64,000 bases of DNA from a bacterium (GTDB lineage: Bacteria; CLD3; SB21). The stretch lies in contig JAIBAF010000011.1 of the NCBI GenBank assembly GCA_019695335.1, positions 13,277 to 77,276 on the forward strand. The letters are read 5' to 3'. A program made the position numbers and the translations under genes. Under the pieces are notes generated by a model. The model saw only the letters and a list, made by a program, of their open reading frames with translations. It ran no database searches and was not told the DNA's origin. Each line of letters starts with the position of its first letter. The first letter of the stretch is position 1. This document shows positions 2,924 to 24,025 of this stretch, in pieces.

Positions 2924-2949
2924 AACTTAGAATTCAATAACACTCTAAT

Positions 2950-2988
2950 AAAAAAACCCGTTTCGAAAAATCGAAACGGGTTTTTTTA
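2950..2988. terminator. Bidirectional rho-independent terminator between convergent genes
   Basis: A-run, then CCCGTTTCGA aaaa TCGAAACGGG, then T7-run. Confidence 0.65.
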
Positions 2989-3006
2989 CCTAACCTAAAC
3001 CAAGGA

Positions 3007-4032
3007 TCAGAACTTAATACCCACCGAAAAGCGATGAGTTGCATCGAGTTGTCCCACGTCCATGTAACCATAATCGAAAGTGACACCTAAATCATCATTA
3101 AATTTATAATCCAACCCACCGCCAAAAGTCAAACCAGCCGTTGCGGCTTTGCTCGTGCGATAATCGCGATTACGTTTTAGGGTTGACGTATAGCCAACAC
3201 GTGCAAAAAACATGTTTTGAAAACCGTATTCGGCACCGAAATTAGTGCGGTTAGCCTGAAAACTATTTATATTTTGTTCCAAAATACCAGTAATAGAATT
3301 TTGTTCGTTACGATATAATTCCATACTAGCGCCAAAATTGACAGCCGCAGGTAACTCAAACGGCTCAGAACCAAACTTTAGAAAGGATTGCTGGCCTGAA
3401 ATAGGATCCGTTGTATTGCGCACTAATCCATCACCATTATATATTGATTGAGGGCCAATATTGGTTGCAGCAAAGCCTAATTTAAGCCCTCGATAACCAG
3501 TATTGTAGGTGAAACCAAAATCAAACGCAAAAGCCGATGCTGAAACTTGGTCAATGGCTGAATTAAGAAACTTCACCGTCAAACCGCCGCTTACACGATC
3601 CGTAATTTGCTTTGAATAAGTAAATCCAAGTGCTAAATCATATGGTGTGTAATTTCCCAAACCTCCGTTCGGATTGGTTTCACTTGTTTTTTCAATTGAC
3701 CCATAGCTTAAATAATTAAAACTCAAACCGAACACACCTGTTTCTCCCATAGGAAAACTGACTGCAGCGTAGTTCGATGTAATACCGGCAAAATGATTCA
3801 AATATGAAAAAGTAAAAGTTGCCCGGTCTGCACTCGATACATTAGCCGGATTCCAATAAATAGCGCTTGCACCGCTGCTATTGGTAAGCCCGGTTGTTCC
3901 TAGTGCGGTCTCACGAGCACCCAATGGAACGTGAAGAAACATAAAACCTGCTTCACCACGTTTTTCTTCACCAGCAAAAACTGATGCAGTCCACAACAAT
4001 AAATATGTTATGGCTATAACTCTTTGTTTCAT
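3007..4032 (-). CDS. Outer-membrane beta-barrel protein, PorV/PorQ-like (T9SS-associated, FadL-like). Family assignment is tentative.
   Basis: Signal peptide, conserved GARETALGTTG motif near the N-terminus, alternating beta-strand pattern, C-terminal ...GIKF ending in Phe. Last gene of an operon with a T9SS cargo protein. RBS AAGGAGA is present. Confidence 0.5.
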   Translation of the reverse strand: MKQRVIAITYLLLWTASVFAGEEKRGEAGFMFLHVPLGARETALGTTGLTNSSGASAIYWNPANVSSADRATFTFSYLNHFAGITSNYAAVSFPMGETGVFGLSFNYLSYGSIEKTSETNPNGGLGNYTPYDLALGFTYSKQITDRVSGGLTVKFLNSAIDQVSASAFAFDFGFTYNTGYRGLKLGFAATNIGPQSIYNGDGLVRNTTDPISGQQSFLKFGSEPFELPAAVNFGASMELYRNEQNSITGILEQNINSFQANRTNFGAEYGFQNMFFARVGYTSTLKRNRDYRTSKAATAGLTFGGGLDYKFNDDLGVTFDYGYMDVGQLDATHRFSVGIKF

Positions 4033-4102
4033 AAAATTCTCCTTAAAATTTTAACAACTTGTTGGGAGCACATTAATGCTCCCAACAATGGACAGCTGTC
4101 TT

Positions 4103-7100
4103 TTATTGAATATCCGGACCGTTAACACGAACTTCTTCTTGAATGACTGCAAATTTAACGGTTGTCTTACCGATTCCCGGAGCTTCAATTAGGGCAATGT
4201 ACATGCCGCTTGCGACAAATTTGTTACCCGCATTCTGAAGGTTCCATACCTCGACTGAAGTTTCGCCTGCTGTCGGCGTCGAACGACTATCTAACGGATT
4301 CGTATTGACTCGATTATTGTTAGAAGTTGCATTATGAACAAGGGTTCTAACTAAATCGCCAGAAACCGTAAAGATTTTGATCGTACATTGTCCGGGCAGA
4401 TTGATAAATTTTAATCGCTTATCAAAAAGTTGCGGCTGATAAGAGGAACGCGCATAATATGGATTCGGTACGACCCGAACGTCCTTGAGTTCTTTTTTCA
4501 AAGATTTCTTGTCGGTCATCGTCGGAGCAGCCACAGTAGTAAATCTAAATACATCGTCAACGGCATTTGGCCGAACGTGGAAGAATCTGAATTGATCACT
4601 ACCGGTTCCGGATGCCGACCATCCCGTATTATTTCTTCTAGCCCATGTTGCCATATACATAATTGGCATATTAGCTGTGCTTAGAGCATTGACCATCAAT
4701 TGCGGATCGGACGTAGTTGCATAGGTCTTATCGGAAATGAATAACCATTCCCTTGGACCAGTACCCGCATAGTTATCACCGCTAGAAAAGAATGGCGGCC
4801 AGTATTTGCCATTGACCAAACCATTTGTCACATTGTTTTCCAAGAAACCAATGGCCAGACGGCGTGGATTATCAGGATCTTCTACATCCCAGGCTGAAAG
4901 CGGCACTGTCTTTACAAAATCTTGATAAGCGTACGTAGCCGTAGTATTTATCATGAACGGAACAAATGCAGGCTGCGCAGGAGCTAATTGAGCATTACGC
5001 AGATACCGATGGCCATAAGATAAATTTACATCATTAACATCAAGCGGATCACCATTAGCATCCGTTGAGGCTAATTTAATTAAAATGTTTTTCAGATCTA
5101 CAGAAGGATAGCGATCGTTTTCATTTCCGAAGAAATGTACAGGACGATCCCAGCCGAGGGCTCCACTAAACGCTTCAAGCCCACCGGCATTGGCGCCACC
5201 GGCAAAAGTAAATTGACGCGTACCGGTTGGTATATCCCAGCCGACATGTTCGCCTCCAGGATTTAACCCAGGTGCCGGACCATATACGCCAATGAGCATT
5301 CCGTCGGCTATATTAAATTCTTCATCGCTATGATCGTTATCAGGAATTGCAATCCGCGTATCAAAATACCGTTCGTCGGCTGCAGTATTCGGATCATTAG
5401 TCCTGGTTTGGAAAGGCACTAACAAGTTGGTAGTAGTATCTCTTAATCTATAAGCCATCGTACCATCCGTGTATCCATCAACGGTGTGTAAGGTGAAGAA
5501 TTCAACTTTATACACATGGCCAGTAATTTTAGATGGATCGACTACTTCAACTGTGACGTTCCCATCCCCAGTGCCAGCAGAGTGTTCGACTTCGCCAAGT
5601 GATGCAGCATAGGTTTTTCCAATTAGCGGTTTCATCGGTACGATTGAAACCACATTGGCTGCAGGCGATGTCTCCAACGATATTGGATATCCGCTCGGTT
5701 TGTCAACAGTACCGCCAAACGGCGAAGTAACCTGTTCTTTGGTATCAGCTATATAAGGCTGTGCGTCATATGCCGTGACGCTATAAAAATATACCTGTCC
5801 GTTTGTGAGCCCTTCGTCGCGATAAGAATAATGTAATCCTGTATTGTTACCCACAACAAGATTCTCAGTAATGAGCGTGCCACTTGGATCAATTGTAATA
5901 TTGACCACTGTACCGAACTCGTCTACTTTATCATAATCCGCCAGCATAGCATAAGAGCCAGGAAGACCTGTTAAACTTCTGTAAACACGATAACCTTGAA
6001 AGTCATTAGTAATGTAATCAGCCGTAAAGCCACTGTCGATCTTGATACCCAGAATGTCACCGGCTTTATCGACGGAGTATTCTGAATTGTTCAACCAAGT
6101 AATGACCGCTTCACCATCCAATCCTACAACATTAATTTTCGGAATATCCGGCGGAGCAGGGGCGACAAGCCCAGCTTTAAAACCTTGCTGAATAGCATCG
6201 TCCAAAACAAACAATTGGGCTACAGCTGTTAACCTGTTATTTCCGCCAACGGACTCTTGACTGGTCCCCAGTACAGCTGCCCAAATTTCTTGTGATTCGC
6301 CGGCATCCAATTTAAAAGGTCCTACACAGTGTGCCATCCGCTGATCAGCGCCATCGGCCGCTTGCGCAACGTTCGGGTTGCTGCCTGCACCAGCAGCAGT
6401 CGGATCTCCGCGATAGGCATAATAATCGGATACCCCAACGCCTGTTTTAACCGAACCATCATTAAATTTTCCTTCTAATTGATTATAGCGCTGTTCGTCA
6501 TTGGCCGGTTGAGAACCACTCTTATACGTATTAAACGCAGTTGCTCCCAACCATATTTTGCCGGCCGGTAATGGCGTAGGTACATAAATATTTTGAGCGC
6601 CATTGTAAACCAAAGTCGATGTGTTGCTTGCAAATTTTGACGCAAGAAGTGGTGACACATCGCTGATATTAACAACTGGACCTTGCAAAAAATCAAAGCC
6701 AGTTGCCGCAGGTCTGTCTGCATCAGTACCATTATAGCAGAATCCCAAACCTCTTGATGTATCCACACCAACAATATCATTTGATGCGTTGTCAGAATTT
6801 ACATCCGGATCCATCCAGAGCCCAATATAGCCACCGGTATAATTTTCGTCTGTTTTATTAGTTAAAGTAAATTTCAAATAAACTGCATCATTCAAAGCAC
6901 CTGACGCGTACACAAACGATTCCAATGTAATTTGGATTCCTAAACCTGGGTCTTCCGTATCTTCACGTTCTTGAGTTAAATCAAGATCCAAATCATTGAA
7001 AACTGCCCACGTCTGAGCGTCGGCAATTAATGCAGGATTTCCATTATTATCACGCGGCGCATCGACCGGCCAATTCGTATAATCCGATCCAGACAAAGAG

Positions 7101-7543
7101 CGATCGATTTGATACACTTTAAGATCGGCTGAACCTGGATCTTCTGCTACCAATTGTTCAAATGGAAGTCCTGAATTAGTAATTCGGCCCGGTTGAAATT
7201 CCGAACGGAACTCTGCTTCGGAAACTGCTCTTATTGTATCTTTTTTCAATGCAGCAAACTGAAAACCACCGGCATAAACAATCGTTCGTCCTGATCCGCG
7301 AGGAAATTCTCCTCCTGGAGCTGAATTTGGCGAATCTTGCATATACCGACCGTTGTTTTCCATCACATAAATCCAGTTATTATAGCCTACACGGATAAGA
7401 TCGGAAATGTCTGGTTTTTTTAAACGAGCTTTTAATTTTTCTGAAGGGCCAAGCTTTGCAACGCCATATGACGACCACAAACTTATCGTCAAAATAACTG
7501 TAGCGGCAATAGTCAGCGCCGAAAATAAAACTTTTTTATTCAT
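4103..7543 (-). CDS. Large secreted protein (1146 aa) with a T9SS C-terminal sorting domain; function unknown
   Basis: Signal peptide. C-terminal ~80 aa (CTIKIFTVSGDLVRTL...GMYIALIEAPGIGKTTVKFAVIQ) matches the Por secretion tail. RBS GGAG is present. Confidence 0.7.
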   Translation of the reverse strand: MNKKVLFSALTIAATVILTISLWSSYGVAKLGPSEKLKARLKKPDISDLIRVGYNNWIYVMENNGRYMQDSPNSAPGGEFPRGSGRTIVYAGGFQFAALKKDTIRAVSEAEFRSEFQPGRITNSGLPFEQLVAEDPGSADLKVYQIDRSLSGSDYTNWPVDAPRDNNGNPALIADAQTWAVFNDLDLDLTQEREDTEDPGLGIQITLESFVYASGALNDAVYLKFTLTNKTDENYTGGYIGLWMDPDVNSDNASNDIVGVDTSRGLGFCYNGTDADRPAATGFDFLQGPVVNISDVSPLLASKFASNTSTLVYNGAQNIYVPTPLPAGKIWLGATAFNTYKSGSQPANDEQRYNQLEGKFNDGSVKTGVGVSDYYAYRGDPTAAGAGSNPNVAQAADGADQRMAHCVGPFKLDAGESQEIWAAVLGTSQESVGGNNRLTAVAQLFVLDDAIQQGFKAGLVAPAPPDIPKINVVGLDGEAVITWLNNSEYSVDKAGDILGIKIDSGFTADYITNDFQGYRVYRSLTGLPGSYAMLADYDKVDEFGTVVNITIDPSGTLITENLVVGNNTGLHYSYRDEGLTNGQVYFYSVTAYDAQPYIADTKEQVTSPFGGTVDKPSGYPISLETSPAANVVSIVPMKPLIGKTYAASLGEVEHSAGTGDGNVTVEVVDPSKITGHVYKVEFFTLHTVDGYTDGTMAYRLRDTTTNLLVPFQTRTNDPNTAADERYFDTRIAIPDNDHSDEEFNIADGMLIGVYGPAPGLNPGGEHVGWDIPTGTRQFTFAGGANAGGLEAFSGALGWDRPVHFFGNENDRYPSVDLKNILIKLASTDANGDPLDVNDVNLSYGHRYLRNAQLAPAQPAFVPFMINTTATYAYQDFVKTVPLSAWDVEDPDNPRRLAIGFLENNVTNGLVNGKYWPPFFSSGDNYAGTGPREWLFISDKTYATTSDPQLMVNALSTANMPIMYMATWARRNNTGWSASGTGSDQFRFFHVRPNAVDDVFRFTTVAAPTMTDKKSLKKELKDVRVVPNPYYARSSYQPQLFDKRLKFINLPGQCTIKIFTVSGDLVRTLVHNATSNNNRVNTNPLDSRSTPTAGETSVEVWNLQNAGNKFVASGMYIALIEAPGIGKTTVKFAVIQEEVRVNGPDIQ

Positions 7544-7616
7544 AAATTGACTCCATGCAATTTTTTTGTATAGGCGCCCGCATTTTAAACTAGAGCGCCT
7601 ATATCAATTCAACTTC

Positions 7617-10586
7617 TTAGAAATTAAATAGTATTCCTATACGAGCCTGACGTGGCGTATCGTATACAAGACCATCATGGCTTATAAGATAATATTGCTG
7701 TACCTGACGTTCATTCAGCGATCTGCCTGCTGCTGTTCCCAAATATCCATCGTCATCAGCATCGCCGGTAGCAGGCCATACTAGCGCAACATTTTTATGA
7801 TCTAGTAAGTTTAAAACCTGCAGATAAACATTAACATTCATCGTATTGGAGATGAAAACCGTTTTGTCAGCTTTAAGATCTAACCGTACCGTCCACGGCT
7901 GATTCTGTGAATTTCTACGCCCCACTGGTTTACCAGCTGGAACACCATTAATCCCAAACGAATTGATATTCACAGGCGTGTACGGAATACCACTTGCTGC
8001 ATTGAATTGGAAATTGACACCAGCGTTATCAAGAATATGATTTCCACCAATCATGGGGCCTTCATCTTTTCCATTACGAATATCCAAATTGGCATTGAAC
8101 GTATGACGTTGATCGAAATTCAAAGGCGCATTTAGCTTAGTGGTTTGAAATCCTAACCAAGCAGCTTGAAAACCGGTAGCTTGTCCTGAACCGCTTCCAC
8201 GAGCTGATTGTAACGTATAGGCCAAACGTCCTTGAATTTTAGAAGTCCGGCGCATTTCAAAGGCAATGTTAACACCTTGAACAACACCTTCATCATAATT
8301 ATTATACAGCACAAGTCCGTTAGGTTGAGATTGAGTGATTCGTACGTTGACAAGGTTTTTAATGTCTTTATAGTAAGCATTCACGTCAATTGAGATTCGA
8401 TCCGTTAACAATCTTCTGATTCCAACTTCATATTGAGTGCTTTCTTCAGCATGCAAATTCGGGTTACCCACGCTTGCCGAAAAAGGCGGTGAAATTGATT
8501 GGCGTTCAAGAAAATCAGGGCTCACATACAAGGCATTAAGATTGGGTTGCTGGAAGAACTTTCCATAACTCATACGGAATTGCGTTTTTTCAGACACAGG
8601 GAAACTAACGCTCAAACGCGGACTAATCTTATTATCGCTCTTCGAATTAGTATAGTCTTCCGGACCAATTGTTCCGGCCCATAAACGATCAACGCCTACA
8701 TCAAACGTATTATTACCATTGAGATCAGTATACTTACCTACATGATCAGGATTGGCCTGTCCTGTAGGATCGCTGAGATCTTTGACACGTTTCACACCGG
8801 CGTTGAATAAGTCATAACGTAAACCGGCACGAAGTACTAATCCTTCAACTTCCATTTTATTTTGTAAGTAACCTGAGAAGGAGATCGGATGAGTAGCACC
8901 GAGAATTTTGTTCTCAAGGTCATCGCTGTTGACTTTTTTCAATTTCTTGTCAGCTGTCACAGTATACCCAATATTATCATTCGCGCCATGTACTGGATCG
9001 GCTGAAAGTTCGCGAAGATTCAATAAGCGAACCGTATGACGGAAAAAGTCAGCTCCAAACTTTAATTGATTTTGTTTGTTGATCTGATTGACATAATTGG
9101 CTTTCACAGCAATGTATGCGTCTTCGCTACGAGTATAGGTTTGGTTCGGACGATCAGGAAAACGCATAAAGTTATCATTGTAATAAGTCGAGAAGCCAGT
9201 ATTATCAGTCGTTGAGTGATCATAATTGGTAATATTCTTGCCGTAATTATCATCATATACATGGAGCTTATTCGAAAAATAGTTAACGCCTAAATCGGCA
9301 AAACTATTAGCATTCAGTGTATAGGTTGCCACCGAGCCTATATTAATATTACTCAAGTCACGGTGCTGTGTATGATCAGGATTGACCGTATAGGTAAGAA
9401 GAAATGCACGACGGTAATTTCTGGTAAGATTACCATTTAGGTCTAAACGGAGTGAGTTTGGAATAACATCGAAAGATAATTTCGATTGAAAGTTAATTCC
9501 TCGATCACTGTTTACGCCATATCCGCTAGAAGTTTTTGGGCGTGCGCCTTTTTTATACTTAATGTTACCATTAGCATCGGTATCAAAAATGACGGTGTCA
9601 ATATCAGCTTCATTTTCACCGCGTATCCCTTCATTTGAAAAACTATATTTCGGATATCCATACACACTGGGCTCAGCATCCGTTATATCTTTTCCTTCAG
9701 CTGAAACATAAAATTTGATCCTGTTGTTTCCAGGAATTAACTGCCCACCGAATCCACCGCTGTATACATCATATCCGTAATACTCATTTTTGTTGAGGGC
9801 AAACATGGCACGGTCATTGACATATTCAAGACTTCCAGAATAGCGTTGACCGCCAGCTTTAGTCGTCACTTGAATAATACCCGATTGATTACGTCCGTAT
9901 TCGGCATCGAATCCACCTGTGATAACTTGTACTTCTTCAACAGAACCGTTTGGAATTGAAGCATTAGAAACCCCAGTTAACAAATTGTTTTGTTGAAAAC
10001 CATCAATATATACACCTGTTTCACTGGGACGACCACCACGTACAAATACTCCGCCCGTTCCACCGTCAACATTACGGCCGCCATTAGTATAAGTATTTGT
10101 AACAATACCCACACCTAAATTTGCTGCCGATTGAAAGCCACGAATCGGTAGATTCTTGATTTCTTCAGACGAAGTTACCGTCATGGTCATCGTCTGATCT
10201 TTTTGGATCAAAGGACGCTCAGCAACAATGATAACTTCTTCGCCACCAAGCGATTCAGGCGATAATTCAAAATCCAAACGTGTCGTAAAATCGGGAAGTA
10301 CACGAACGTTTTGTTTGGTTACTTTGGTATAACCAATCATGCTCGTACTGATAGAATAAACACCAGCGGGAACGTTAATGATACTAAATTCACCGCTTGC
10401 ATTCGTTGCAGCACCCATCGTCGTGCCGTCAAGAATGATATTCACACCCGGGAGAGCATCGCCGGTTTCTTTGTCTTTCACGATACCGGTTATCTTACCG
10501 GTCGTTCCTGAAAACAAATTAGCCGGAAGAGACAGCAGTCCCAAAGCTACCAATAAGGTCAGCTTTTTAATAGTACTTCTGAACAT
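7617..10586 (-). CDS. TonB-dependent outer-membrane receptor with an N-terminal carboxypeptidase-regulatory-like domain
   Basis: Signal peptide MFRSTIKKLTLLVALGLLS (start moved to the internal ATG preceded by AGGAGGA). CarboxypepD_reg-like segment (TGKITGIVKDKETGDALPGVNIILDG...), then a plug region and a long barrel ending in ...RIGILFNF. Confidence 0.75.
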   Translation of the reverse strand: MFRSTIKKLTLLVALGLLSLPANLFSGTTGKITGIVKDKETGDALPGVNIILDGTTMGAATNASGEFSIINVPAGVYSISTSMIGYTKVTKQNVRVLPDFTTRLDFELSPESLGGEEVIIVAERPLIQKDQTMTMTVTSSEEIKNLPIRGFQSAANLGVGIVTNTYTNGGRNVDGGTGGVFVRGGRPSETGVYIDGFQQNNLLTGVSNASIPNGSVEEVQVITGGFDAEYGRNQSGIIQVTTKAGGQRYSGSLEYVNDRAMFALNKNEYYGYDVYSGGFGGQLIPGNNRIKFYVSAEGKDITDAEPSVYGYPKYSFSNEGIRGENEADIDTVIFDTDANGNIKYKKGARPKTSSGYGVNSDRGINFQSKLSFDVIPNSLRLDLNGNLTRNYRRAFLLTYTVNPDHTQHRDLSNINIGSVATYTLNANSFADLGVNYFSNKLHVYDDNYGKNITNYDHSTTDNTGFSTYYNDNFMRFPDRPNQTYTRSEDAYIAVKANYVNQINKQNQLKFGADFFRHTVRLLNLRELSADPVHGANDNIGYTVTADKKLKKVNSDDLENKILGATHPISFSGYLQNKMEVEGLVLRAGLRYDLFNAGVKRVKDLSDPTGQANPDHVGKYTDLNGNNTFDVGVDRLWAGTIGPEDYTNSKSDNKISPRLSVSFPVSEKTQFRMSYGKFFQQPNLNALYVSPDFLERQSISPPFSASVGNPNLHAEESTQYEVGIRRLLTDRISIDVNAYYKDIKNLVNVRITQSQPNGLVLYNNYDEGVVQGVNIAFEMRRTSKIQGRLAYTLQSARGSGSGQATGFQAAWLGFQTTKLNAPLNFDQRHTFNANLDIRNGKDEGPMIGGNHILDNAGVNFQFNAASGIPYTPVNINSFGINGVPAGKPVGRRNSQNQPWTVRLDLKADKTVFISNTMNVNVYLQVLNLLDHKNVALVWPATGDADDDGYLGTAAGRSLNERQVQQYYLISHDGLVYDTPRQARIGILFNF

Positions 10587-10947
10587 AATGTTCCTCCTTC
10601 TGTTAAGAAAAGAAGCGTTAATTAGGTACGAAAACAAAATCGTAACAATTCTAACCATACACCTCCTTGGTAAGTTGAACGTTTTGATGTTTTAAGGGAG
10701 CAATAAACTTTCGTCGAAATACAGAACTTTAAAAAGATAAGATCGGAAAACAGATGTGTTATAAATTAGATGCACTAAGCACGTAGCAAGCTAACTAATT
10801 GAAATTCTTCTTACTATTACCTAAAAGGGTAAATATTTTCATAATTACCCATTGGGGTTATACTAAGATTTTTTGGTTAGTAAAAATTAAGGCTAGCTGT
10901 AAAGGCTTGTTGGATAAGGATTGACGAGGAGTTTAAATAAAAATAAA

Positions 10948-10985
10948 AAACTCCCGATGTTTTGCATCGGGAGTTAATAACCTAA
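10948..10985 (-). terminator. Rho-independent terminator downstream of the response-regulator gene
   Basis: CTCCCGATG ttttg CATCGGGAG with a T-run when read on the minus strand. Confidence 0.5.
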
Positions 10986-11003: not shown

Positions 11004-11621
11004 TTAAACTAATTTTTCCTTCAAAGCTTTTGCAACGGCTTCGGATTTTGAATGAACTTCAAGCTTTTTGTAAATACTCTTTAGATGTCTTCTGACAGTT
11101 TCTTCACTAATAAATAGAATATCTGCAATCATTTTGTAGCTTTTGCCAGTACACAATTGTTGTAAAACTTCAGTCTCACGCTGCGTCAGTAACGTATGTG
11201 TTTTTTTCTGAAAAGAGTGAACTACCATGCGTGCAATTTGTGTACTCATGGGTGCGCCGCCGTCTGCAACATCTTTGATCGCATCCAAAATTCGTGCGGT
11301 GGGAGTGTCTTTAACCAAATACCCGCAAGCACCTGCGCAGAGCGCATCGAAAACGTATTCATCATTTTCATGGACCGTTAATACAATAACATCCATGTCG
11401 GGAAGTTTTTCTTTAATTTTCTTAATACCTTCAATGCCCGACATATCCGGAAGCCCAATGTCCATTAACACAACATTCGGCGGATCTTTTATGACGCCGG
11501 CGATCCCTGTAGCGCAATCATTGTACGTATGCGTGCACTTGAACTGCAGTGTACTGTTAATCAACATAGCCAAGCTTTGGCATATGTCTTTGTCGTCTTC
11601 GACAATGGATACAGTTATCAT
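11004..11621 (-). CDS. Two-component response regulator, NarL/FixJ (LuxR-type HTH) family
   Basis: REC domain with acidic pocket (IVEDD...VLMDIGLPDMSG). C-terminal LuxR HTH (LTQRETEVLQQLCTGKSYKMIADILFISEETVRRHLKSIYKKL). Confidence 0.85.
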   Translation of the reverse strand: MITVSIVEDDKDICQSLAMLINSTLQFKCTHTYNDCATGIAGVIKDPPNVVLMDIGLPDMSGIEGIKKIKEKLPDMDVIVLTVHENDEYVFDALCAGACGYLVKDTPTARILDAIKDVADGGAPMSTQIARMVVHSFQKKTHTLLTQRETEVLQQLCTGKSYKMIADILFISEETVRRHLKSIYKKLEVHSKSEAVAKALKEKLV

Positions 11622-11646: not shown

Positions 11647-14600
11647 TCAATTGAACTCGGTGGGCAATGATCCGGAAAAAGTAACGATGGTGCCGTGTTC
11701 TCCGGATTGTATATCTAAAAAACCATTGATCTTTTGTGCACGATTGTGCATGCTCATCAACCCCTGACCAGCCGAACCATTGTGAGCATTAAAACCCGTA
11801 CCGTCGTCTTTTAAAGATACAATAATCCCTGAATAATTCAACTTAAATTCCAATTGGACGTTGTGACACTGAGCATGCTTCAGAATGTTGGTCATGGCCT
11901 CCTTAAAGATCAGGGTCAAATGTCTCCGCCAGTCCATGGATAAACGCAAATGAGCCATATCCTGATTCAAGCCGTTCACGCGGAAAGCAACTCCCGTACG
12001 CTCAAACAGTTCGTCGCCAAAATCCTTGATTCGGACGGCAACATCGTACAAAGAATCTCTTTCCGGATTCAGCGTCCACAGAAAATCACGCATCCCGATC
12101 GACAACGTTTTGGACGTGTCTATGATCTTGTTCATCGATTCCACGCTCTCAGCCGTTGCTTCCTTCAATTCTTTTTTCATAACTTCCGTAAGCAGCGCGA
12201 TTTTGGTTAATTTGTGCCCGAATTCATCGTGAAAATCATCGGCAGCTTTTTTCCGAATACGTTCGCTTTCCAGTACCCGTACGCGCTCCAATTCCAACAT
12301 GTGCGCAATACGCTGGCGAACCCTGTATTCGTGAGAAACCACCAATAACAATACGATCAGACCAACGGCCAAGCCGTAAAACCACCACGTTCGCCAGAAT
12401 GGCGGCGTAATCGTAATCGCGATCGAAGCTCCAACCTCATTCCATACTTGATCGTTATTAGAGCCTCGTACTCTGAATACATAATCGCCAGGACTTAAAT
12501 TGGTATAACTCGCATAACGCCGTAAACCGCTATGGACCCAATCCTCATCGAATCCTTCTAATTTATAGACATATTGATTTTTAGCCGGTAAAGTATAATC
12601 CAAAGCCACGAATTCAAACGAAAAGAAATTGTCCTGATACGATAATTCGATCACATCCATATCTGAAACGGGTTTATTAAATTTAACACGTTTGTCAAAT
12701 TTATTGAATGCCGTAATTACAATAGGCGGTACGTAAGGATTGTCTTTCATTTCATCGGGATAAAAACTGTTAAATCCATTAATGCCCCCAAAAAACATCT
12801 CGCTGGCTCGCGTTTTATACACTGCTCCCTGATTGAATTCATTACTCTGTAAACCGTCGGCAATATCGTAATTTTTGTGACTTTTGGTAATTGGATTAAA
12901 TTTCGATAAGCCGTTATTAGTACTCAACCACAAATTGCCGTCGTTATCATCCAGAATCCCGTAAATGACATTATTAGGAATACCGTCCTCTTCCGTAAAG
13001 CGCACAAACGTCTCCGTTTCCCGATTAAAACGGTTGAGTCCTCCTCCATACGTTCCGATCCAAATTTGCTTATTCAAATCTTCGTATATATTCATCACAG
13101 CATTGTGGCTCAAACTAGTAGGATCATGAAGGATCCGCTTGAACTGCTTGAAATCATCTTGCGAGCGATTAAATCGATTCAATCCGTTGCGCGTGCCGAT
13201 CCACAAAGTTCCGGCGTGATCTTCAAAAATCGTTGTCACCGATGCGCCGCTCAATGATGTGCTATCTTTCGGATCGAATAGATAACGTTTAAATGTATTG
13301 GTAGAACGATCAAATCGATTTAAACCTAAGGATGTACCAACCCAAATAACATGTTGGTGATCTTGATATACGCTGGTTACATAATCCGAAGAAAGCGACT
13401 GAGGATCATTAGAATTATACCGGTAAGATATCACGCGTTTGGATTTCGGATCGATTTTGTCTAAACTGCGCGGCCTTGCGGCCCACAAAAAACCTTCATT
13501 ATCTTCGATGATCCTCAAATAAAGTCCTCCCGAATCGTCTTTCATTAAGGGCTTGAACGATTCATCCGAACGATCAAATTGACATAAACCTTCGTCCGTT
13601 CCAACCCATAATGTACCTTCACGATCTTCACAAAATGACCACACAGTATTACCTGTCAAGCTTTTCGGATCGGTTGGATCGTGCTTGTAATGTTTAAACC
13701 TGTCTCGAAAACGATTGAGATTGCTCAACCCACCCAACTCCGTTCCAATCCATAGAGTACCCGTACGATCTTCATAAATGGATAAAACCGTATTATGACT
13801 AAGACTGCGGACGTCGGCCTGACTATATAAATAATGTTTGAACGACTGCCGTTTCGCATCCAAGCGGTTAAGTCCGTTATTAGTACCAATCCACAAAATA
13901 CCGAAATTATCTTCGATGATGCTGTTAATATTATTGGAACTTAAACTGGCATAATTTTTAAGATCATGAAAATACCGCGTAAATTGACCTGTGTCTTTGT
14001 CAAAACGGTTAAGTCCAGCATTCTCGGTTCCAATCCAAATAGTACCGGTATTATCTTCACACAATGCCGTAATGGAATTACCGCTGATCCCTCGCAGATT
14101 TCCAGAATTGTATTCATAGCGTGCCATCTGTTGTTTGTCCCGATCAAGACAAATCAAACCGTTGCCCGTAGCAATCCACGTATATCCGCTTTTATCCAAT
14201 AACAACGCCCTGATAGGTCCGAGATGGCGTGCTTTATCCGTATCACAAAAATAACGTTTGAATGCCCCCGTTTTCGGATCAAAACTGTGTAACCCAATAT
14301 TTGTACCAATCCATAAAATACCATATTGATCCTGAGCGATCGACGATACAAAGTTGCCGTTAATCGAAGTGGAATCCGACGGATCGTGGCGATAGTGGGT
14401 AAAATTATCATGATTGACATCGAATCGGTTAAGACCTTCATTCGTGCCAACCCAAAGTACTCCGTCATTGTCCTCATAAAGCGCACTGATTAAATCATTA
14501 GAAAGTGAGGTGGAATCCATCGGATTGTGCTTGTATATCGTCAGGGAATATCCATCATACCGGTTCAAACCATTGGCTGTACCAAACCACATAAATCCTT

Positions 14601-14748
14601 TGCGATCCTGCAAAATACAACGCACCGTGCTTTGCGATAAACCGTCATCAATTCCAAGCCTTTGAAAATGAAAATTATGACGCTGAGCAATGACTGCTGA
14701 ATTCAGAACGAATAAAAGACAAAACGATGTGAATCGTAAATACGACAT
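11647..14748 (-). CDS. Sensor histidine kinase with a periplasmic two-component-regulator beta-propeller plus Y_Y_Y domain
   Basis: Repeated propeller motifs (WIGT/WVGT..GLNRFD) at least 12 times, a TM segment, a HisKA_3-like H-box (FHDEFGHKLT) and a HATPase_c (DDGTGFN...GQGLMSMHNRA). Confidence 0.8.
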   Translation of the reverse strand: MSYLRFTSFCLLFVLNSAVIAQRHNFHFQRLGIDDGLSQSTVRCILQDRKGFMWFGTANGLNRYDGYSLTIYKHNPMDSTSLSNDLISALYEDNDGVLWVGTNEGLNRFDVNHDNFTHYRHDPSDSTSINGNFVSSIAQDQYGILWIGTNIGLHSFDPKTGAFKRYFCDTDKARHLGPIRALLLDKSGYTWIATGNGLICLDRDKQQMARYEYNSGNLRGISGNSITALCEDNTGTIWIGTENAGLNRFDKDTGQFTRYFHDLKNYASLSSNNINSIIEDNFGILWIGTNNGLNRLDAKRQSFKHYLYSQADVRSLSHNTVLSIYEDRTGTLWIGTELGGLSNLNRFRDRFKHYKHDPTDPKSLTGNTVWSFCEDREGTLWVGTDEGLCQFDRSDESFKPLMKDDSGGLYLRIIEDNEGFLWAARPRSLDKIDPKSKRVISYRYNSNDPQSLSSDYVTSVYQDHQHVIWVGTSLGLNRFDRSTNTFKRYLFDPKDSTSLSGASVTTIFEDHAGTLWIGTRNGLNRFNRSQDDFKQFKRILHDPTSLSHNAVMNIYEDLNKQIWIGTYGGGLNRFNRETETFVRFTEEDGIPNNVIYGILDDNDGNLWLSTNNGLSKFNPITKSHKNYDIADGLQSNEFNQGAVYKTRASEMFFGGINGFNSFYPDEMKDNPYVPPIVITAFNKFDKRVKFNKPVSDMDVIELSYQDNFFSFEFVALDYTLPAKNQYVYKLEGFDEDWVHSGLRRYASYTNLSPGDYVFRVRGSNNDQVWNEVGASIAITITPPFWRTWWFYGLAVGLIVLLLVVSHEYRVRQRIAHMLELERVRVLESERIRKKAADDFHDEFGHKLTKIALLTEVMKKELKEATAESVESMNKIIDTSKTLSIGMRDFLWTLNPERDSLYDVAVRIKDFGDELFERTGVAFRVNGLNQDMAHLRLSMDWRRHLTLIFKEAMTNILKHAQCHNVQLEFKLNYSGIIVSLKDDGTGFNAHNGSAGQGLMSMHNRAQKINGFLDIQSGEHGTIVTFSGSLPTEFN

Positions 14749-18472: not shown

Positions 18473-19078
18473 TCAGGATCGCCTCTTCCCAAATTGTGTT
18501 TTCAGACTCTCGATCTTCTGGGACAACGATGCCAACCCGGCCGGTGTCGCCACATTCGCATTAAATCCTGAATCCAGAATCTTTACTTCCGCCAAACTCT
18601 GTGTAAACTCTCCCAGCACAAAATGATTCGACGCTTTCAAAACCCGTAAGTCAGAAACATCCAATCCAAGACCATACGTAAACTCCCAATCCGAATCCAA
18701 CGCCAAAGCCACGCCGATCTCCGTGTTCGCCGCCGCATAACTCTTCCCCGCACTCAGCACAAACGCCCATCCGGCAAACAAATCAGCCGGTGCATTCGTT
18801 TTATCCGCCCCGTCACTGAACGCATTCGACGCGGCCGTGATATTGCTCAACTGAATGTAGCACCACCCTATTGCACTGTAGATTTCAGCCTTGTCAGGAT
18901 CCGCATCCCGAGCGTCTTCAAACGCTGCCAAGGCTTCCGTGTAATCTCCCGACGCGAACAACGTCTCGCCCTCGGTTATCAGTTTATCGTAATCCCCTTT
19001 ACCGGAACCGCCACCACACGAAAGCATTCCCAATGCTACCGTCATAGCCATTAATGTAAATATCTTCCTCGATCTCAT
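18473..19078 (-). CDS. Small TPR-like lipoprotein, copy 1
   Basis: Lipobox MLSCGGGSG and a helical TPR-like body. Essentially identical to 22497..23108. Confidence 0.6.
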   Translation of the reverse strand: MRSRKIFTLMAMTVALGMLSCGGGSGKGDYDKLITEGETLFASGDYTEALAAFEDARDADPDKAEIYSAIGWCYIQLSNITAASNAFSDGADKTNAPADLFAGWAFVLSAGKSYAAANTEIGVALALDSDWEFTYGLGLDVSDLRVLKASNHFVLGEFTQSLAEVKILDSGFNANVATPAGLASLSQKIESLKTQFGKRRS

Positions 19079-19995
19079 AATTCTACTCCTTATTTGATCA
19101 ACATCATTTTTTTCGTTTTGACAAACGCGCCGGCTTCGACGCGGTATAAATACACCCCGCTCGCCACCTGCTGGCCCAGTTCATTCTTCCCATCCCAGCT
19201 GATGCGGTAACTGCCGGCCAATTGAAATCCGCTATACAGCGTCTTCACGCGCTGACCCAATAAATTATATACCACTAACTTCAGAGTACCGTCCTGTGGA
19301 AGATCAAACGCGATCGTTGTGCTCGGGTTAAATGGATTCGGATAGTTTTGTTTCAATGTAAATTCTTTCGGCACAACATTATTACCGGTAAATGTAGCAT
19401 CGAGCCCGACCTTAAACTCTCCCAAAGTTTTGACTAAGGCCCGCACTTGATGCTTCTCCGCATACACTTGTGTACGCAAAGGCGTCCACGTATCACCGGT
19501 CTTCTGATAAATAAACACCTTCCCTTCATCTGCGAAATTACCTTGGGCATAGGTCATCGTGAGCACCAGTTCCTCGGCGTAGTCGCTCTCCGGACCGAAT
19601 TTCACAACCGTTTCACTTTCATCCGAGGCTGTCATATAGGTCTCGGTTTTAACCGAATGTTTGCTCATCTGCAAGGTCCCTTGACCGTTGGGGGTGGTGA
19701 CCGAGGCGATCTGTCCCGGCTTGGCCAGCGTGACGCCATAGGTTCTTGTCTGGATCGAATCTCTTCCACCGCTCGTAGTTGCCTTGATCCGGAAATTATA
19801 AGTTCCGCTGACTGAGAACACCGACGCACCACGGTATACTTTATTGGTACCGTTCACCTGAGCCATCGCGATCGATGTAGTATCGGTTAAACCGGTCACC
19901 CACATCTTGACCGTCGGCACGCCGCTGAACGCTGTGTCGGTCACGACCACCATGTCAAAATATTTCGACAACGCCGGATTCTGTAAAATCGACGT
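18485..19995. repeat. Direct repeat copy 1 (~1.5 kb, at least 99% identical to 22515..24025). It spans the lipoprotein gene plus the 3' ~900 nt of the BNR cargo gene.
   Basis: Pairwise comparison at a constant 4030-bp offset: identical for ~1350 bp, then five SNPs (19843, 19888, 19939-19941, 19974-19976) before the copies diverge. Confidence 0.85.
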
Positions 19996-22164
19996 ACCCA
20001 ACGGTGCGGGCGATGAATTTCCGAAATACTTCAACGACCTAGCTAATATTTTACCCATATTCGAATTTTCGAATAAGCGATAAATCTGAGCGCTTATAAA
20101 TACTCCTCGCGCGCCATGCCCTGTGTTATCAACATTTACTCCTCCGACATTAACGCTATCGGGATCATAATTAGGTCCGTAATAAAATGCTTTGTGTACG
20201 TTGCTGTTCAACAAGGTCAACTTATCACGTGTTGAGCCTCCTAACGCAATTGATGTCGTAATTCCATCACCTATTTTATTGGCGGTAAATCCTTTGAAAC
20301 TACTCGACGATGTATAGTTCCCGTTAAATCCGACTCCAAGTTTGTTTTGAAAAAGCGGATGCGATGAATGCAATTCTACTAAATCCGGTCCTGCAGCAAA
20401 TAAATGAACTCCACGGTCACATAGTAAGCTTAATGTATCGAGGAACGCCGTTGTTGTTGTTATTGCTGATGATGCAGACCATATAATAACTCGTCTTTTT
20501 GTTTTTTCAATGGCCTCGACAGGCAAACTTCGTCCCATAGTCACTAAATCCCAAAGATATGTGGTATAACCAGAATCTAATAAATGGCTTTGCATAAAAG
20601 TACCATAGAAAGCGATATCAACCATTACAAAAACGTCCGCCCGATCAATATTAAATTCATAATTAGAATTCAAAGATGGTTGTGCAATGGACTGCCTTAC
20701 ATAAGGCGCTTCGGAAATCACTACAATTGAATCATAAAAATTGAGTGATGAAAGATTTGTAAAAGTATTCCCGGATAGCGTATCCGCTGGAAATAGAGTA
20801 CCATTGCCATATCGACCGTACAATAAAACTGTAGAATTGACGTCATCCTGATAGACGTTGACCACGCTTACGCCAATGGAACCCATCGTTCCATTTAGTG
20901 ATAATTGGAAATTAACGTCAGTTGTACCACCTGCATTGACGTTGACATTTCCGATAACCTGATTAACACCAGCAGATTGAGCTTTAAGAGAATAAGTGCC
21001 GGGTGATAAATACATGGTGTACTTTCCGTCAGTATTATTGACGATACAACTGTCCGAACCTCCGACGACTACTACCGACGCATGCCCAACCGGCAAACCT
21101 CCGGAAGTCGTTGTAATCGTACCGGATATTTTGCCATAGCCGGAAGGATTGGTATTGAGTTTATATAAATTGGTGCCAAGCGCATCCTGATTGAGTGCAT
21201 AGACATCATGACTCGTAGCTGCTTTAATCATCCAGATGGCAGGATACGTAAATAGGTTTCCAAGTTGCTGCCAACTCTTTCCTTTATCAGCGCTTCTGTA
21301 AATACCTACTTCGAGGGACGTTCGGGAACCAAATACACCGATAAATAAATCCCCATTGACCGGATCCTGATCCAAACCCCACATGAAAATTCCATACAAT
21401 CCCATATCATTCCATGTCACGCCGCCGTCAGTACTTCGAAAGAATGAATAAGCAGCATCCAGTTGAATAGCCGCGTACACCATATTTGGCGTCGACTTAT
21501 CCCAAACGATTTTCGGGCATTCAGAGAAATAAGGATTCCCTCCTTTGACCAATGTCCAAGTCAAACCGTAATCTGTCGACCTGGCAATCTTAGTATCACC
21601 GGCACCTATGACGATTACGTTGGGATGAAAAGGATCAGCTGCAATGGTACAAACGTTACCATAAGGAACAACCGAACGCACGTGCCACGTACGGCCCGTA
21701 TCCGCGCTCAGCCAAAATTCACTCGTGTAAAAATCGACAAAATACATCGTGTCGGGATGAACAATATTATAGTCAAATGATTCACCGTCAGTCGAGCCTT
21801 CTTCTTTAACTTGTTCCCAATCAAATCCTCCATTTGTACTACGAAGAATACCATTATTTCCTACCATAACGATAATGGAAGTATCCAACGGACTCACGCG
21901 AATAGTACGAATGCCCGGACCTTGCGAAATGGATCCCCGTGTACTCCAGGTCGAACCCGCATCATAACTCACTTTGAATATTTTCTCCACGTTGTCGTGA
22001 ATGTACACGACATTATTATTAAGTGGACTCAACACAAATGCATAACCGTCGTGAACAGTCGGATACGTTTTCGTCCACGTCAGGTTTGTCTGTGAGTGTG
22101 CTGAAGTAGCAATGACTAGCATTTCTACAAAAAAAGTCCAAAACACCGTACGTAAAAAATTCAT
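19090..22164 (-). CDS. T9SS-sorted surface protein, paralog A: N-terminal BNR/Asp-box beta-propeller, CarboxypepD_reg-like domain, central domain of unknown function, and Por secretion tail
   Basis: Signal peptide. Six S-x-D-x-G-x-T/S-W Asp-box motifs (SYDAGSTWS, STNGGFDWE, SADTGRTWH, STDYGLTWT, STDGGVTWN, SADKGKSWQ). C-terminal KQNYPNPFNPSTTIAFDLP...VYLYRVEAG...KKMMLIK matches the T9SS CTD. Confidence 0.7.
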   Translation of the reverse strand: MNFLRTVFWTFFVEMLVIATSAHSQTNLTWTKTYPTVHDGYAFVLSPLNNNVVYIHDNVEKIFKVSYDAGSTWSTRGSISQGPGIRTIRVSPLDTSIIVMVGNNGILRSTNGGFDWEQVKEEGSTDGESFDYNIVHPDTMYFVDFYTSEFWLSADTGRTWHVRSVVPYGNVCTIAADPFHPNVIVIGAGDTKIARSTDYGLTWTLVKGGNPYFSECPKIVWDKSTPNMVYAAIQLDAAYSFFRSTDGGVTWNDMGLYGIFMWGLDQDPVNGDLFIGVFGSRTSLEVGIYRSADKGKSWQQLGNLFTYPAIWMIKAATSHDVYALNQDALGTNLYKLNTNPSGYGKISGTITTTSGGLPVGHASVVVVGGSDSCIVNNTDGKYTMYLSPGTYSLKAQSAGVNQVIGNVNVNAGGTTDVNFQLSLNGTMGSIGVSVVNVYQDDVNSTVLLYGRYGNGTLFPADTLSGNTFTNLSSLNFYDSIVVISEAPYVRQSIAQPSLNSNYEFNIDRADVFVMVDIAFYGTFMQSHLLDSGYTTYLWDLVTMGRSLPVEAIEKTKRRVIIWSASSAITTTTAFLDTLSLLCDRGVHLFAAGPDLVELHSSHPLFQNKLGVGFNGNYTSSSSFKGFTANKIGDGITTSIALGGSTRDKLTLLNSNVHKAFYYGPNYDPDSVNVGGVNVDNTGHGARGVFISAQIYRLFENSNMGKILARSLKYFGNSSPAPLGTSILQNPALSKYFDMVVVTDTAFSGVPTVKMWVTGLTDTTSIAMAQVNGTNKVYRGASVFSVSGTYNFRIKATTSGGRDSIQTRTYGVTLAKPGQIASVTTPNGQGTLQMSKHSVKTETYMTASDESETVVKFGPESDYAEELVLTMTYAQGNFADEGKVFIYQKTGDTWTPLRTQVYAEKHQVRALVKTLGEFKVGLDATFTGNNVVPKEFTLKQNYPNPFNPSTTIAFDLPQDGTLKLVVYNLLGQRVKTLYSGFQLAGSYRISWDGKNELGQQVASGVYLYRVEAGAFVKTKKMMLIK

Positions 22165-22439
22165 AACGTCCTCTTTTTATTTAATACTTTCCACTTTTTC
22201 CGGTCGTAACAGACATCAAATATTTCGCATTTACAACATTTTTAAAAACCTGACTGAATATATGTTCTATATAAGCTCCATCTTAGGATACGACAACTAC
22301 CTGATTGGATAGTATTGATATGAAAAGAAAGGAATCTTTTATCAAAACTACCCTTTCGGCTATTTCTGGATGAATTACAAAAAGATGTTTCGTAATGTAA
22401 AAACTTTAAAAAGCGATCCCGGTCATGGCTAATGGGAAA

Positions 22440-22476
22440 TAAAAAAACCCTTTGAAAATCCAATCTCAAAGGGTTC
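22440..22476 (-). terminator. Rho-independent terminator after lipoprotein gene copy 2
   Basis: CCCTTTGA...TCAAAGGG hairpin with a T-run on the minus strand. Confidence 0.5.
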
Positions 22477-22496
22477 GTAAAGTATTCTCTTGATTC

Positions 22497-23108
22497 TTAA
22501 TTCGGTAACTTGAGCTTCCCAAATTGTGTTTTCAGACTCTCGATCTTCTGGGACAACGATGCCAACCCGGCCGGTGTCGCCACATTCGCATTAAATCCTG
22601 AATCCAGAATCTTTACTTCCGCCAAACTCTGTGTAAACTCTCCCAGCACAAAATGATTCGACGCTTTCAAAACCCGTAAGTCAGAAACATCCAATCCAAG
22701 ACCATACGTAAACTCCCAATCCGAATCCAACGCCAAAGCCACGCCGATCTCCGTGTTCGCCGCCGCATAACTCTTCCCCGCACTCAGCACAAACGCCCAT
22801 CCGGCAAACAAATCAGCCGGTGCATTCGTTTTATCCGCCCCGTCACTGAACGCATTCGACGCGGCCGTGATATTGCTCAACTGAATGTAGCACCACCCTA
22901 TTGCACTGTAGATTTCAGCCTTGTCAGGATCCGCATCCCGAGCGTCTTCAAACGCTGCCAAGGCTTCCGTGTAATCTCCCGACGCGAACAACGTCTCGCC
23001 CTCGGTTATCAGTTTATCGTAATCCCCTTTACCGGAACCGCCACCACACGAAAGCATTCCCAATGCTACCGTCATAGCCATTAATGTAAATATCTTCCTC
23101 GATCTCAT
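22497..23108 (-). CDS. Small TPR-like lipoprotein, copy 2
   Basis: Identical to copy 1 except for the last few C-terminal residues. Confidence 0.6.
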   Translation of the reverse strand: MRSRKIFTLMAMTVALGMLSCGGGSGKGDYDKLITEGETLFASGDYTEALAAFEDARDADPDKAEIYSAIGWCYIQLSNITAASNAFSDGADKTNAPADLFAGWAFVLSAGKSYAAANTEIGVALALDSDWEFTYGLGLDVSDLRVLKASNHFVLGEFTQSLAEVKILDSGFNANVATPAGLASLSQKIESLKTQFGKLKLPN

Positions 23109-24025
23109 AATTCTACTCCTTATTTGATCAACATCATTTTTTTCGTTTTGACAAACGCGCCGGCTTCGACGCGGTATAAATACACCCCGCTCGCCACCTG
23201 CTGGCCCAGTTCATTCTTCCCATCCCAGCTGATGCGGTAACTGCCGGCCAATTGAAATCCGCTATACAGCGTCTTCACGCGCTGACCCAATAAATTATAT
23301 ACCACTAACTTCAGAGTACCGTCCTGTGGAAGATCAAACGCGATCGTTGTGCTCGGGTTAAATGGATTCGGATAGTTTTGTTTCAATGTAAATTCTTTCG
23401 GCACAACATTATTACCGGTAAATGTAGCATCGAGCCCGACCTTAAACTCTCCCAAAGTTTTGACTAAGGCCCGCACTTGATGCTTCTCCGCATACACTTG
23501 TGTACGCAAAGGCGTCCACGTATCACCGGTCTTCTGATAAATAAACACCTTCCCTTCATCTGCGAAATTACCTTGGGCATAGGTCATCGTGAGCACCAGT
23601 TCCTCGGCGTAGTCGCTCTCCGGACCGAATTTCACAACCGTTTCACTTTCATCCGAGGCTGTCATATAGGTCTCGGTTTTAACCGAATGTTTGCTCATCT
23701 GCAAGGTCCCTTGACCGTTGGGGGTGGTGACCGAGGCGATCTGTCCCGGCTTGGCCAGCGTGACGCCATAGGTTCTTGTCTGGATCGAATCTCTTCCACC
23801 GCTCGTAGTTGCCTTGATCCGGAAATTATAAGTTCCGCTGACTGAGAACACCGACGCACCACGATATACTTTATTGGTACCGTTCACCTGAGCCATCGCG
23901 ATCGATGTAGTATCGGTCAAACCGGTCACCCACATCTTGACCGTCGGCACGCCGCTGAGCACTGTGTCGGTCACGACCACCATGTCAAAATATTTCGACA
24001 ACGCCGGATTCTGCAGAATCGACGT
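22515..24025. repeat. Direct repeat copy 2 (partner of 18485..19995)
   Basis: Same alignment as copy 1, at a 4030-bp offset. Confidence 0.85.

Follow-up and report, generated by a model that had tools for sequence, protein, structure and literature searches.

We analysed a 64,000-nucleotide stretch of a bacterial genome (GTDB lineage Bacteria; CLD3; SB21; NCBI GenBank assembly GCA_019695335.1, contig JAIBAF010000011.1, positions 13,277 to 77,276 of the forward strand), hereafter the window, in which three adjacent, co-oriented open reading frames (ORFs) encode a TonB-dependent transporter, a very large protein that we call BIG, and a small outer-membrane barrel of the PorV/PorQ family. BIG ends in a domain related to type IX secretion system (T9SS) sorting signals, and the three genes recur together, in the same order, far beyond this genome. 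The triad looks like an undescribed alternative to the SusC/SusD nutrient-capture pair, with a T9SS-exported protein as the presumptive surface partner of the transporter.

Organization of the triad locus

All three ORFs lie on the minus strand, in the order transporter, BIG, barrel. The transporter gene (gene 1) occupies 10586..7617 (−) and encodes 989 amino acids (aa) from a methionine codon at 10586; a longer ORF, 10658..7617, would give 1013 aa. The start at 10586 appears the likelier of the two because a Shine-Dalgarno sequence, GGAGG, stands in front of it, it opens a normal signal peptide, and it matches the N-termini of homologues. BIG (gene 2; 7543..4103, −; 1146 aa) follows after a spacer of 73 nt, and the barrel gene (gene 3; 4032..3007, −; 341 aa) after a further 70 nt. 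A preliminary description of this DNA, made from the letters alone, had placed three co-oriented ORFs at these coordinates; our analysis agrees and assigns them to the minus strand. About 360 nt of non-coding DNA lie between the upstream terminator region and gene 1.

Downstream of the barrel gene we found an intrinsic terminator (2947..2990, −) with a perfect 20-bp stem and a U-run (−28.7 kcal/mol, z −6.5), common to the triad and to a convergent DUF3047 gene. The preliminary description had reported a strong terminator only after the third gene; the terminator itself is there, but the word "only" has to go, since both intergenic spacers also fold into strong hairpins. In the transporter–BIG spacer (7544..7616, −), an 11-bp, G+C-rich hairpin precedes an A-run (RNA fold −19.8 kcal/mol, z −3.0), and in the BIG–barrel spacer (4033..4102, −) a perfect 12-bp hairpin runs into an interrupted U-tract (RNA fold −27.7 kcal/mol, z −6.0). 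Neither hairpin is a canonical terminator, and a scan of the two spacers detected no sigma-70-like promoter or canonical terminator in either. Among 18 related loci whose spacer at the BIG–barrel position measures ≥40 nt, 7 have a hairpin there (L001 13484-13555, L006 11133-11190 and five other loci), with unrelated sequences. These intra-operon hairpins may be attenuators or mRNA-stabilising elements and could set unequal expression of the triad genes; we read them as no sign of independent transcription.

The three encoded proteins

The transporter scores above the curated Pfam cut-offs in all three of its domains: CarbopepD_reg_2 (69.9 bits), Plug PF07715 (38.9 bits, cut-off 23.9) and TonB_dep_Rec_b-barrel PF00593 (104.7 bits, cut-off 27). 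Behind a signal peptide come a CarboxypepD_reg-like extension, a TonB-box-like motif and a plug, and the 22-strand-type barrel closes with a terminal Phe. The N-terminal extension (10227..10493, −; PF13715/PF13620, residues 56-144 of the 1013-aa ORF) is the same kind of domain as the N-terminal extension of SusC, and the family profile also matches 9hfj and 6ytc, structures of isolated N-terminal extensions from SusC and other TonB-dependent receptors. Between the extension and the plug, where the sequence reads EEVIIVAERPLIQ, lies the TonB-box-like motif GGEEVIIVAERPLIQ (10203..10247, −). Its consensus, VVVxAERPLIxKDxT, is kept across 59 triad transporters, and we take it to be the TonB box by its resemblance to classical boxes. 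When a profile of 24 family members was compared with the Protein Data Bank (PDB), it matched Cir, PhuR, FepA/PfeA and a SusC homologue, with E-values of 1e-19 to 5e-25 for Cir, PhuR and FepA; a search with the single sequence recovered the CarboxypepD_reg domain only, and the family profile was needed for the rest. Gene 1 encodes a genuine TonB-dependent transporter, as the preliminary description had proposed when it named a CarboxypepD_reg-type TonB-dependent receptor, with N-terminal domain, plug and barrel all recovered above cut-off.

Membership of the SusC/RagA family was rejected: the transporter reaches 55.6 bits against the TIGR04056 cut-off of 368.25, with only the N-terminal ~210 model positions aligned, and the triad transporters of Ignavibacterium album and Eisenbacteria likewise fall short of this model. 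We also rejected gene 1 as an Oar-type barrel, whose model, PF25183 (OMP_b-brl_4), gives no match. Oar of Myxococcus xanthus matters here as the model for a transporter that works outward. PMC6434023 describes it as a CarboxypepD_reg-containing TonB-dependent transporter required for protein secretion. Like the triad transporter, it is a long TonB-dependent barrel with a CarboxypepD_reg N-domain that is functionally linked to an extracellular protein, PopC. By analogy, gene 1 could help to secrete BIG or another protein. The lack of a PF25183 match, in a window where that model does match another protein (40294-43527), and the T9SS signal that BIG already bears make such a role very improbable, and we presume that transport is inward.

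BIG has no match in Pfam, nor do eight distant homologues, and NCBIfam assigns it to no family, giving only weak matches, which involve the PorZ and PorU C-termini and the type-A sorting domain. Its AlphaFold2 model (pLDDT 80.8, pTM 0.74) is almost all-beta, with a beta-supersandwich N-domain (~aa 46-460), an FN3-like domain (~466-600), further beta domains, a variable region (~760-985) and a C-terminal domain. Foldseek comparison of the model returned PorZ (5m11) first, followed by the non-catalytic beta-supersandwich N-domains of GH15, GH65, GH94, GH116 and related enzymes. Neither Pfam nor Foldseek of the model revealed a catalytic domain, so the claim of the preliminary description that the 1146-aa protein lacks a recognisable one held up when its structure was predicted.

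The family is built in modules: conservation holds over the N-terminal ~760 residues, gives way to a variable stretch (~760-985) that is absent from 750-aa paralogues, and returns in the C-terminal domain. BIG begins with a Sec signal peptide without a lipobox, and a lipobox-like signal occurs in 1 of 63 family members. In an exhaustive profile search the family comprised 15,430 representatives of 50%-identity clusters at E<=1e-3 and 4,434 at E<=1e-30; it is multi-copy, with a variable middle region. No characterised member was found among them, all named ones being "hypothetical" or generic.

The C-terminal domain of BIG (4139..4492, −; aa 1018-1135) runs VVPNPYY...NLPGQCTIKIFT...VASGMYIALIEAPGIGK..KFAVIQ, after which come 11 more residues. 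No other part of the protein is as well conserved: median identity to the window protein is 44% here and 14-30% elsewhere. The last ~135 aa give weak matches to the PorZ tail (E 4.5e-7) and to TIGR04183 (E 0.0024), and also match the PorU tail. When a profile of BIG tails was aligned by hhalign with a profile of canonical type-A C-terminal domains from the same genomes, the probability was 97.3% (E 2.3e-11). By this profile comparison the BIG tail is judged homologous to T9SS type-A sorting domains, in agreement with the T9SS C-terminal domain assigned to it in the preliminary description. Across searches it repeatedly scores best against the tails of PorZ and PorU, the two known retained sorting domains, and it appears to be a divergent, distinct and unusually conserved subfamily of T9SS-type C-terminal domains. 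Relatives of the BIG N-domain carry an ordinary Por_Secre_tail (P0053-55, P0059), and several Bacteroidota homologues of BIG bear the NCBI name "T9SS type A sorting domain-containing protein". Canonical T9SS cargo proteins are encoded in the same window, and therefore the organism uses T9SS. Export of BIG by this route, predicted from its C-terminal domain, is the best reading.

The barrel passes the NCBIfam model for the PorV family (NF033709, 196.1 bits, cut-off 90) and PF19572 (30.5 bits, cut-off 27), and carries both the GARETALGTTG motif and a terminal Phe; the preliminary description had called it PorV/PorQ-like on the latter two features, and its existing NCBI label is "PorV/PorQ family protein". 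It stays below every equivalog cut-off, with 137.7 bits against 220 for PorQ (NF033711), 79.2 against 250 for PorV (NF033710) and 56 against 325 for PorV2, and below that for BamG as well. Five barrels from other triads behave in the same way: all pass the PorV/PorQ family models, and none is PorV, PorQ, PorV2 or BamG. A phmmer search of the PDB identified Flavobacterium johnsoniae PorV (6h3i_F) at 1.7e-11, and Foldseek of the 14-strand-type AlphaFold2 model (pLDDT 89.5) ranked PorV first (8gl6_F, E 3.7e-16, TM 0.66; 6h3i_F, 6.2e-13).

Because the PorV family shares the FadL fold, we weighed a FadL-type channel, in which hydrophobic compounds pass through the small barrel and the triad serves to take up lipids or other hydrophobic molecules. 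FadL, TodX and CymD are indeed significant structural matches (E ~4e-9, TM 0.50-0.55), yet they lie seven orders behind PorV (best 3.7e-9), with BamG further down, and the FadL/OmpP1 model PF03349 has no match to the window barrel at E<=0.01 while the PorV models match. By profile and by fold, then, the barrel is of PorV type; the outcome that the preliminary description had named as refuting, a match to FadL or OmpP1 in place of PorV, did not occur, and a channel for hydrophobic compounds is highly unlikely. Gene 3 encodes a PorV/PorQ-family barrel, of PorV type over FadL type, and is an orthologue of neither PorV nor PorQ. Of the "PorV-type shuttle" in the preliminary description, the PorV-type family and fold stand; the PorV shuttle itself is ruled out by the equivalog scores.

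A shuttle function in a wider sense was considered separately. Here the barrel would only ferry BIG from the translocon, the tail would be removed, BIG would be released or linked to lipopolysaccharide (LPS), and the co-regulated transporter would import products of BIG or of neighbouring secreted proteins. The closest solved structure of the barrel is a PorV shuttle bound to a substrate C-terminal domain (8gl6_F), the BIG tail is homologous to cleavable type-A domains, and in 28 loci the triad is flanked by further genes for canonical T9SS cargo, all of which would suit this arrangement. However, the organism must already possess a general PorV for its many canonical cargo proteins, and the BIG tail forms a distinct, unusually conserved subfamily closest to the retained tails of PorZ and PorU. 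We therefore regard export alone as distinctly unlikely and propose that gene 3 is better described as a dedicated, PorQ-like docking barrel for the C-terminal domain of BIG than as a general shuttle, a role predicted from family and tail relationships.

Conservation and genomic surroundings of the triad

A scan of one genome per species yielded at least 534 homologous loci, 80 of which were retained; 87 loci were fetched in all, and triads were called in them by phmmer with the three window proteins. The complete, ordered, co-oriented transporter–BIG–barrel triad is present in 62 of the 87 loci, the rest being mostly cut by contig ends or consisting of paralogue arrays, and the median spacer in triad loci is 21 nt on both sides. 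Individual homologue look-ups found the triad kept at 49%, 33% and 23% BIG identity to the window. Carriers belong to Ignavibacteria (including I. album and Melioribacter roseus), Calditrichota, Neomarinimicrobiota, Eisenbacteria, KSB1, Zixibacteria, Cloacimonadota, WOR-3, Gemmatimonadota, Latescibacterota and several orders of Bacteroidota and Rhodothermota, at least ten phyla of the Fibrobacterota–Chlorobiota–Bacteroidota (FCB) superphylum; cultured organisms among them are I. album, M. roseus, Owenweeksia hongkongensis and Phaeocystidibacter marisrubri. The three proteins also co-diverge, with mirror-tree Spearman coefficients of 0.63-0.83. The three genes form a single conserved unit with short spacers, well beyond what chance would produce. 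Given this conservation (62 of 87 loci) and a median spacer of 21 nt, we rejected chance adjacency and independent transcription as the main explanation. The three-gene operon of the preliminary description is thus borne out by comparative genomics, and its occurrence as a widespread superphylum-level module, beyond this genome, is a point that description did not contain.

Variations on the triad were also seen. One locus (L048) holds two tandem triads, and another (L073) the order transporter–BIG–barrel–BIG–barrel. Bacteroidota triads have longer proteins (transporter ~1240 aa, BIG ~1260-1450 aa), and in eight Bacteroidota loci (L007, L029, L034, L040, L041, L072, L084, L085) greA lies 3′ of the triad; these features suggest that in this phylum the triad is a stable, possibly housekeeping locus. 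In close relatives, tandem arrays of four to five BIG paralogues occur without transporter or barrel (L004 4470-19438; L005 8001-19471), adjoining small Reg_prop proteins and a ~1030-aa tetratricopeptide-repeat (TPR) protein. The BIG copies in these arrays stop at ...KFAIIQ and lack the ~11-residue C-terminal tail (QEExxINGPDxR) of the triad copies.

Such arrays are among the observations that would fit a surface coat or adhesin, with the triad as a display cassette whose PorV-like barrel (perhaps also the transporter-like one) only anchors a large T9SS-delivered adhesin or S-layer-like protein, as SprF does for SprB. BIG is large, all-beta and multi-copy, with an FN3-like domain, a hypervariable region and no catalytic domain; the Bacteroidota triad is a single locus next to greA; and dedicated PorP/SprF-type barrels beside adhesin genes are an established precedent (PMC10202324). 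The SprB–SprF system of F. johnsoniae, in which cargo with a type-B C-terminal domain is paired with a PorP/SprF barrel, resembles the triad in that a large T9SS cargo gene is followed by its own small barrel gene. It differs in that the triad has a barrel of the PorV/PorQ family, a BIG tail related to type A and not type B, and a transporter gene as part of the unit. Display alone leaves unexplained a complete transporter, with plug and TonB-box-like motif, upstream in almost every locus in at least ten phyla, and for this reason we consider it unlikely.

The genes around the triad give little away about a substrate. In the window, its neighbours are a two-component pair, the DUF3047 gene, genes for lipid-synthesis-type membrane proteins and DNA polymerase III alpha; the DUF3047 protein (2204-2923, +; 117.5 bits) converges on the triad. 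No ORF of window 1-16000 matches the SusD family, and an ORF and Pfam survey of the triad locus identified no gene for a carbohydrate-active enzyme (CAZyme) or peptidase. The two-component pair lies directly upstream of the triad and co-oriented with it: a histidine kinase with a Reg_prop/Y_Y_Y periplasmic sensor (14748..11647, −; Reg_prop 225 bits, Y_Y_Y 70.7, HisKA_3, HATPase_c), a NarL/LuxR-type response regulator (11621..11004, −; Response_reg and GerE) and a terminator (10949-10975, −) between the pair and the triad. The pair is a candidate triad regulator in this lineage only. A Reg_prop/Y_Y_Y sensor occurs near the triad only in close relatives, and we therefore dropped it as family-wide evidence for glycan sensing.

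In the wider family, the canonical T9SS cargo genes that flank the triad in 28 loci encode FG-GAP, M23, Amidase_2 or CBM20/X25 domains, the CBM20/X25 cargo being found nearby in some distant loci. A ~500-aa PPIC-type rotamase (SurA-like) stands directly before or after the triad in 12 loci (for example L076 7899-9491; the carriers include Melioribacter, Calditrichaceae and others); a peptidyl-prolyl isomerase is also a component of the SprA–PorV translocon complex. These recurrent neighbours are heterogeneous, and no substrate can be deduced from them.

Elsewhere in the window, a tandem duplication of ~4 kb (18473-26526, −) contains two copies of a unit made up of a ~200-aa lipoprotein-like gene and a ~1024-aa T9SS cargo gene (Sortilin/BNR-like, CarboxypepD_reg, Por_Secre_tail). 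Positions 18485-18784 and 22515-22814 are 100% identical, and other parts 73-76%. The second copy of the cargo gene is split into ORFs of 315 and 820 aa, pointing to a frameshift, a pseudogene or an assembly error. Next to it, 26539-28371 (−) encodes a 610-aa multihaem cytochrome (Cytochrome_C554/C7/c3) with a Por_Secre_tail (35 bits) and FlgD_ig (52.6 bits), a predicted T9SS-exported cytochrome that might take part in extracellular electron transfer. The PF25183 protein mentioned above (40294-43527, +; 1077 aa; CarboxypepD_reg and OMP_b-brl_4, 190 bits) is a second long outer-membrane barrel headed by CarboxypepD_reg; it is of a family different from that of the triad transporter and has no triad partners.

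A proposed outer-membrane assembly

We propose, at roughly even odds (a probability of about 0.5), that the three genes encode one outer-membrane assembly in which T9SS-exported BIG is held through its retained tail on a cognate barrel and acts as the surface partner of the transporter. BIG would cross the inner membrane by the Sec pathway and the outer membrane by T9SS, with the C-terminal domain as its signal. Its tail would then be neither cleaved nor linked to LPS; it would dock on the PorV/PorQ-family barrel encoded just downstream. Since BIG has no lipid anchor, this docking would fix it at the surface. There, BIG would capture or present a ligand — most likely a polymer or another large nutrient — that the transporter would import with TonB energy. 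Ligand specificity would reside in BIG's variable middle region, and paralogues would serve different ligands. From the gene content, family assignments, homology of the tail to T9SS sorting domains, conservation and tight spacing, all of them observed, we infer the retention of the tail, the contacts of BIG with barrel and transporter, the import and the nature of the ligand.

Several observations weigh against this assembly. The co-divergence of the three proteins singles out no pair, the partial correlation of the BIG tail being 0.35 with the barrel and 0.30 with the transporter. The tail stays under the curated cut-offs (TIGR04183, 17.8 bits, cut-off 23; PF18962, 14.8 bits, E 0.037). Fold comparison of BIG gave weak matches (TM 0.1-0.2), restricted to non-catalytic enzyme domains, and with no CAZyme, peptidase or SusD gene at the locus, nothing there points to a substrate. 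BIG paralogue arrays occur without transporter or barrel (L004, L005), so that a private barrel or transporter is not strictly required by BIG, and the strong hairpins between the triad genes leave room for unequal expression. Even so, surface display, export alone, outward transport and a hydrophobic channel are all less consistent with the data than the proposed import assembly.

The proposal draws on a precedent in Porphyromonas gingivalis, where retained C-terminal domains are bound by barrels, that of PorZ by PorQ and that of PorU by PorV; a review has proposed that such tails are shielded from cleavage by cognate PorV-like barrels (PMC10202324). The triad shares with these pairs a T9SS-exported protein whose C-terminal domain would be kept and held by a barrel of the PorV/PorQ family; the PorZ and PorU tails are the best-scoring matches of the BIG tail, and for the triad barrel the PorQ model gives a higher score than the PorV model. 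It departs from them in that BIG has neither the beta-propellers of PorZ nor the peptidase domain of PorU, in that the barrel is under the PorQ, PorV, PorV2 and BamG cut-offs, and in that, unlike PorZ/PorQ, the pair has a genetic link to a TonB-dependent transporter.

The comparison with SusC/SusD and RagA/RagB bears on the transporter. In these systems, as in the triad, a CarboxypepD_reg-like extension precedes the TonB box and plug, an adjacent gene encodes a large, non-catalytic surface partner, and the system is multi-copy with a variable partner; the Reg_prop/Y_Y_Y sensor near the window triad also recalls the hybrid two-component regulators of Bacteroides. SusD and surface glycan-binding proteins serve SusC as BIG would serve the triad transporter. 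There are also differences: the transporter does not reach the SusC/RagA cut-off, and its barrel is no closer to SusC than to classical receptors; the partner is a 1146-aa, all-beta, non-lipidated protein with a T9SS tail, whereas SusD is a lipoprotein with a TPR fold; and the triad always includes a third gene, for a PorV-family barrel, in a locus without CAZymes. The term "PUL-like", by which the preliminary description likened the module to a polysaccharide utilisation locus, does not hold in a strict sense, given that there is no SusD, CAZyme or peptidase and that the receptor reaches 55.6 bits against a SusC/RagA cut-off of 368. Its broader suggestion of an alternative surface capture and import arrangement fares better: the receptor is real and lacks a SusD partner, BIG has a T9SS tail and the unit is conserved, with polymer uptake the part that we infer.

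Collectively, the components are of known kinds, and their combination does not match SusCD, PorZ/PorQ, SprB/SprF or Oar. A description of the triad was not found in the open-access full texts searched, and the chance that it represents an outer-membrane machine of a class of its own is reasonable. A wider claim, which we put forward tentatively and hold a little less probable than not, is that the triad is an ancient, superphylum-wide uptake machine, in which the partner of a TonB-dependent transporter is delivered by T9SS and held by a dedicated PorV-family barrel via a retained sorting domain, and that it is a functional alternative to SusCD and perhaps its evolutionary forerunner.

SusCD-type complexes are the accepted model for the uptake of large nutrients in Bacteroidota; to our knowledge, such uptake is poorly understood in related phyla with few or no SusD genes. 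Should the proposed assembly prove true, it would constitute a second architecture for TonB-dependent capture and supply a physiological function for the many PorV/PorQ-family paralogues that are unassigned. A direct link between T9SS and TonB-dependent import would also follow, widening the role of this system from secretion and attachment to the building of import machines. Since the triad occurs in cultured organisms, the idea can be tested directly, and it would explain how large substrates are captured in SusD-poor FCB phyla, among them Ignavibacteria, Marinimicrobia and Calditrichota.

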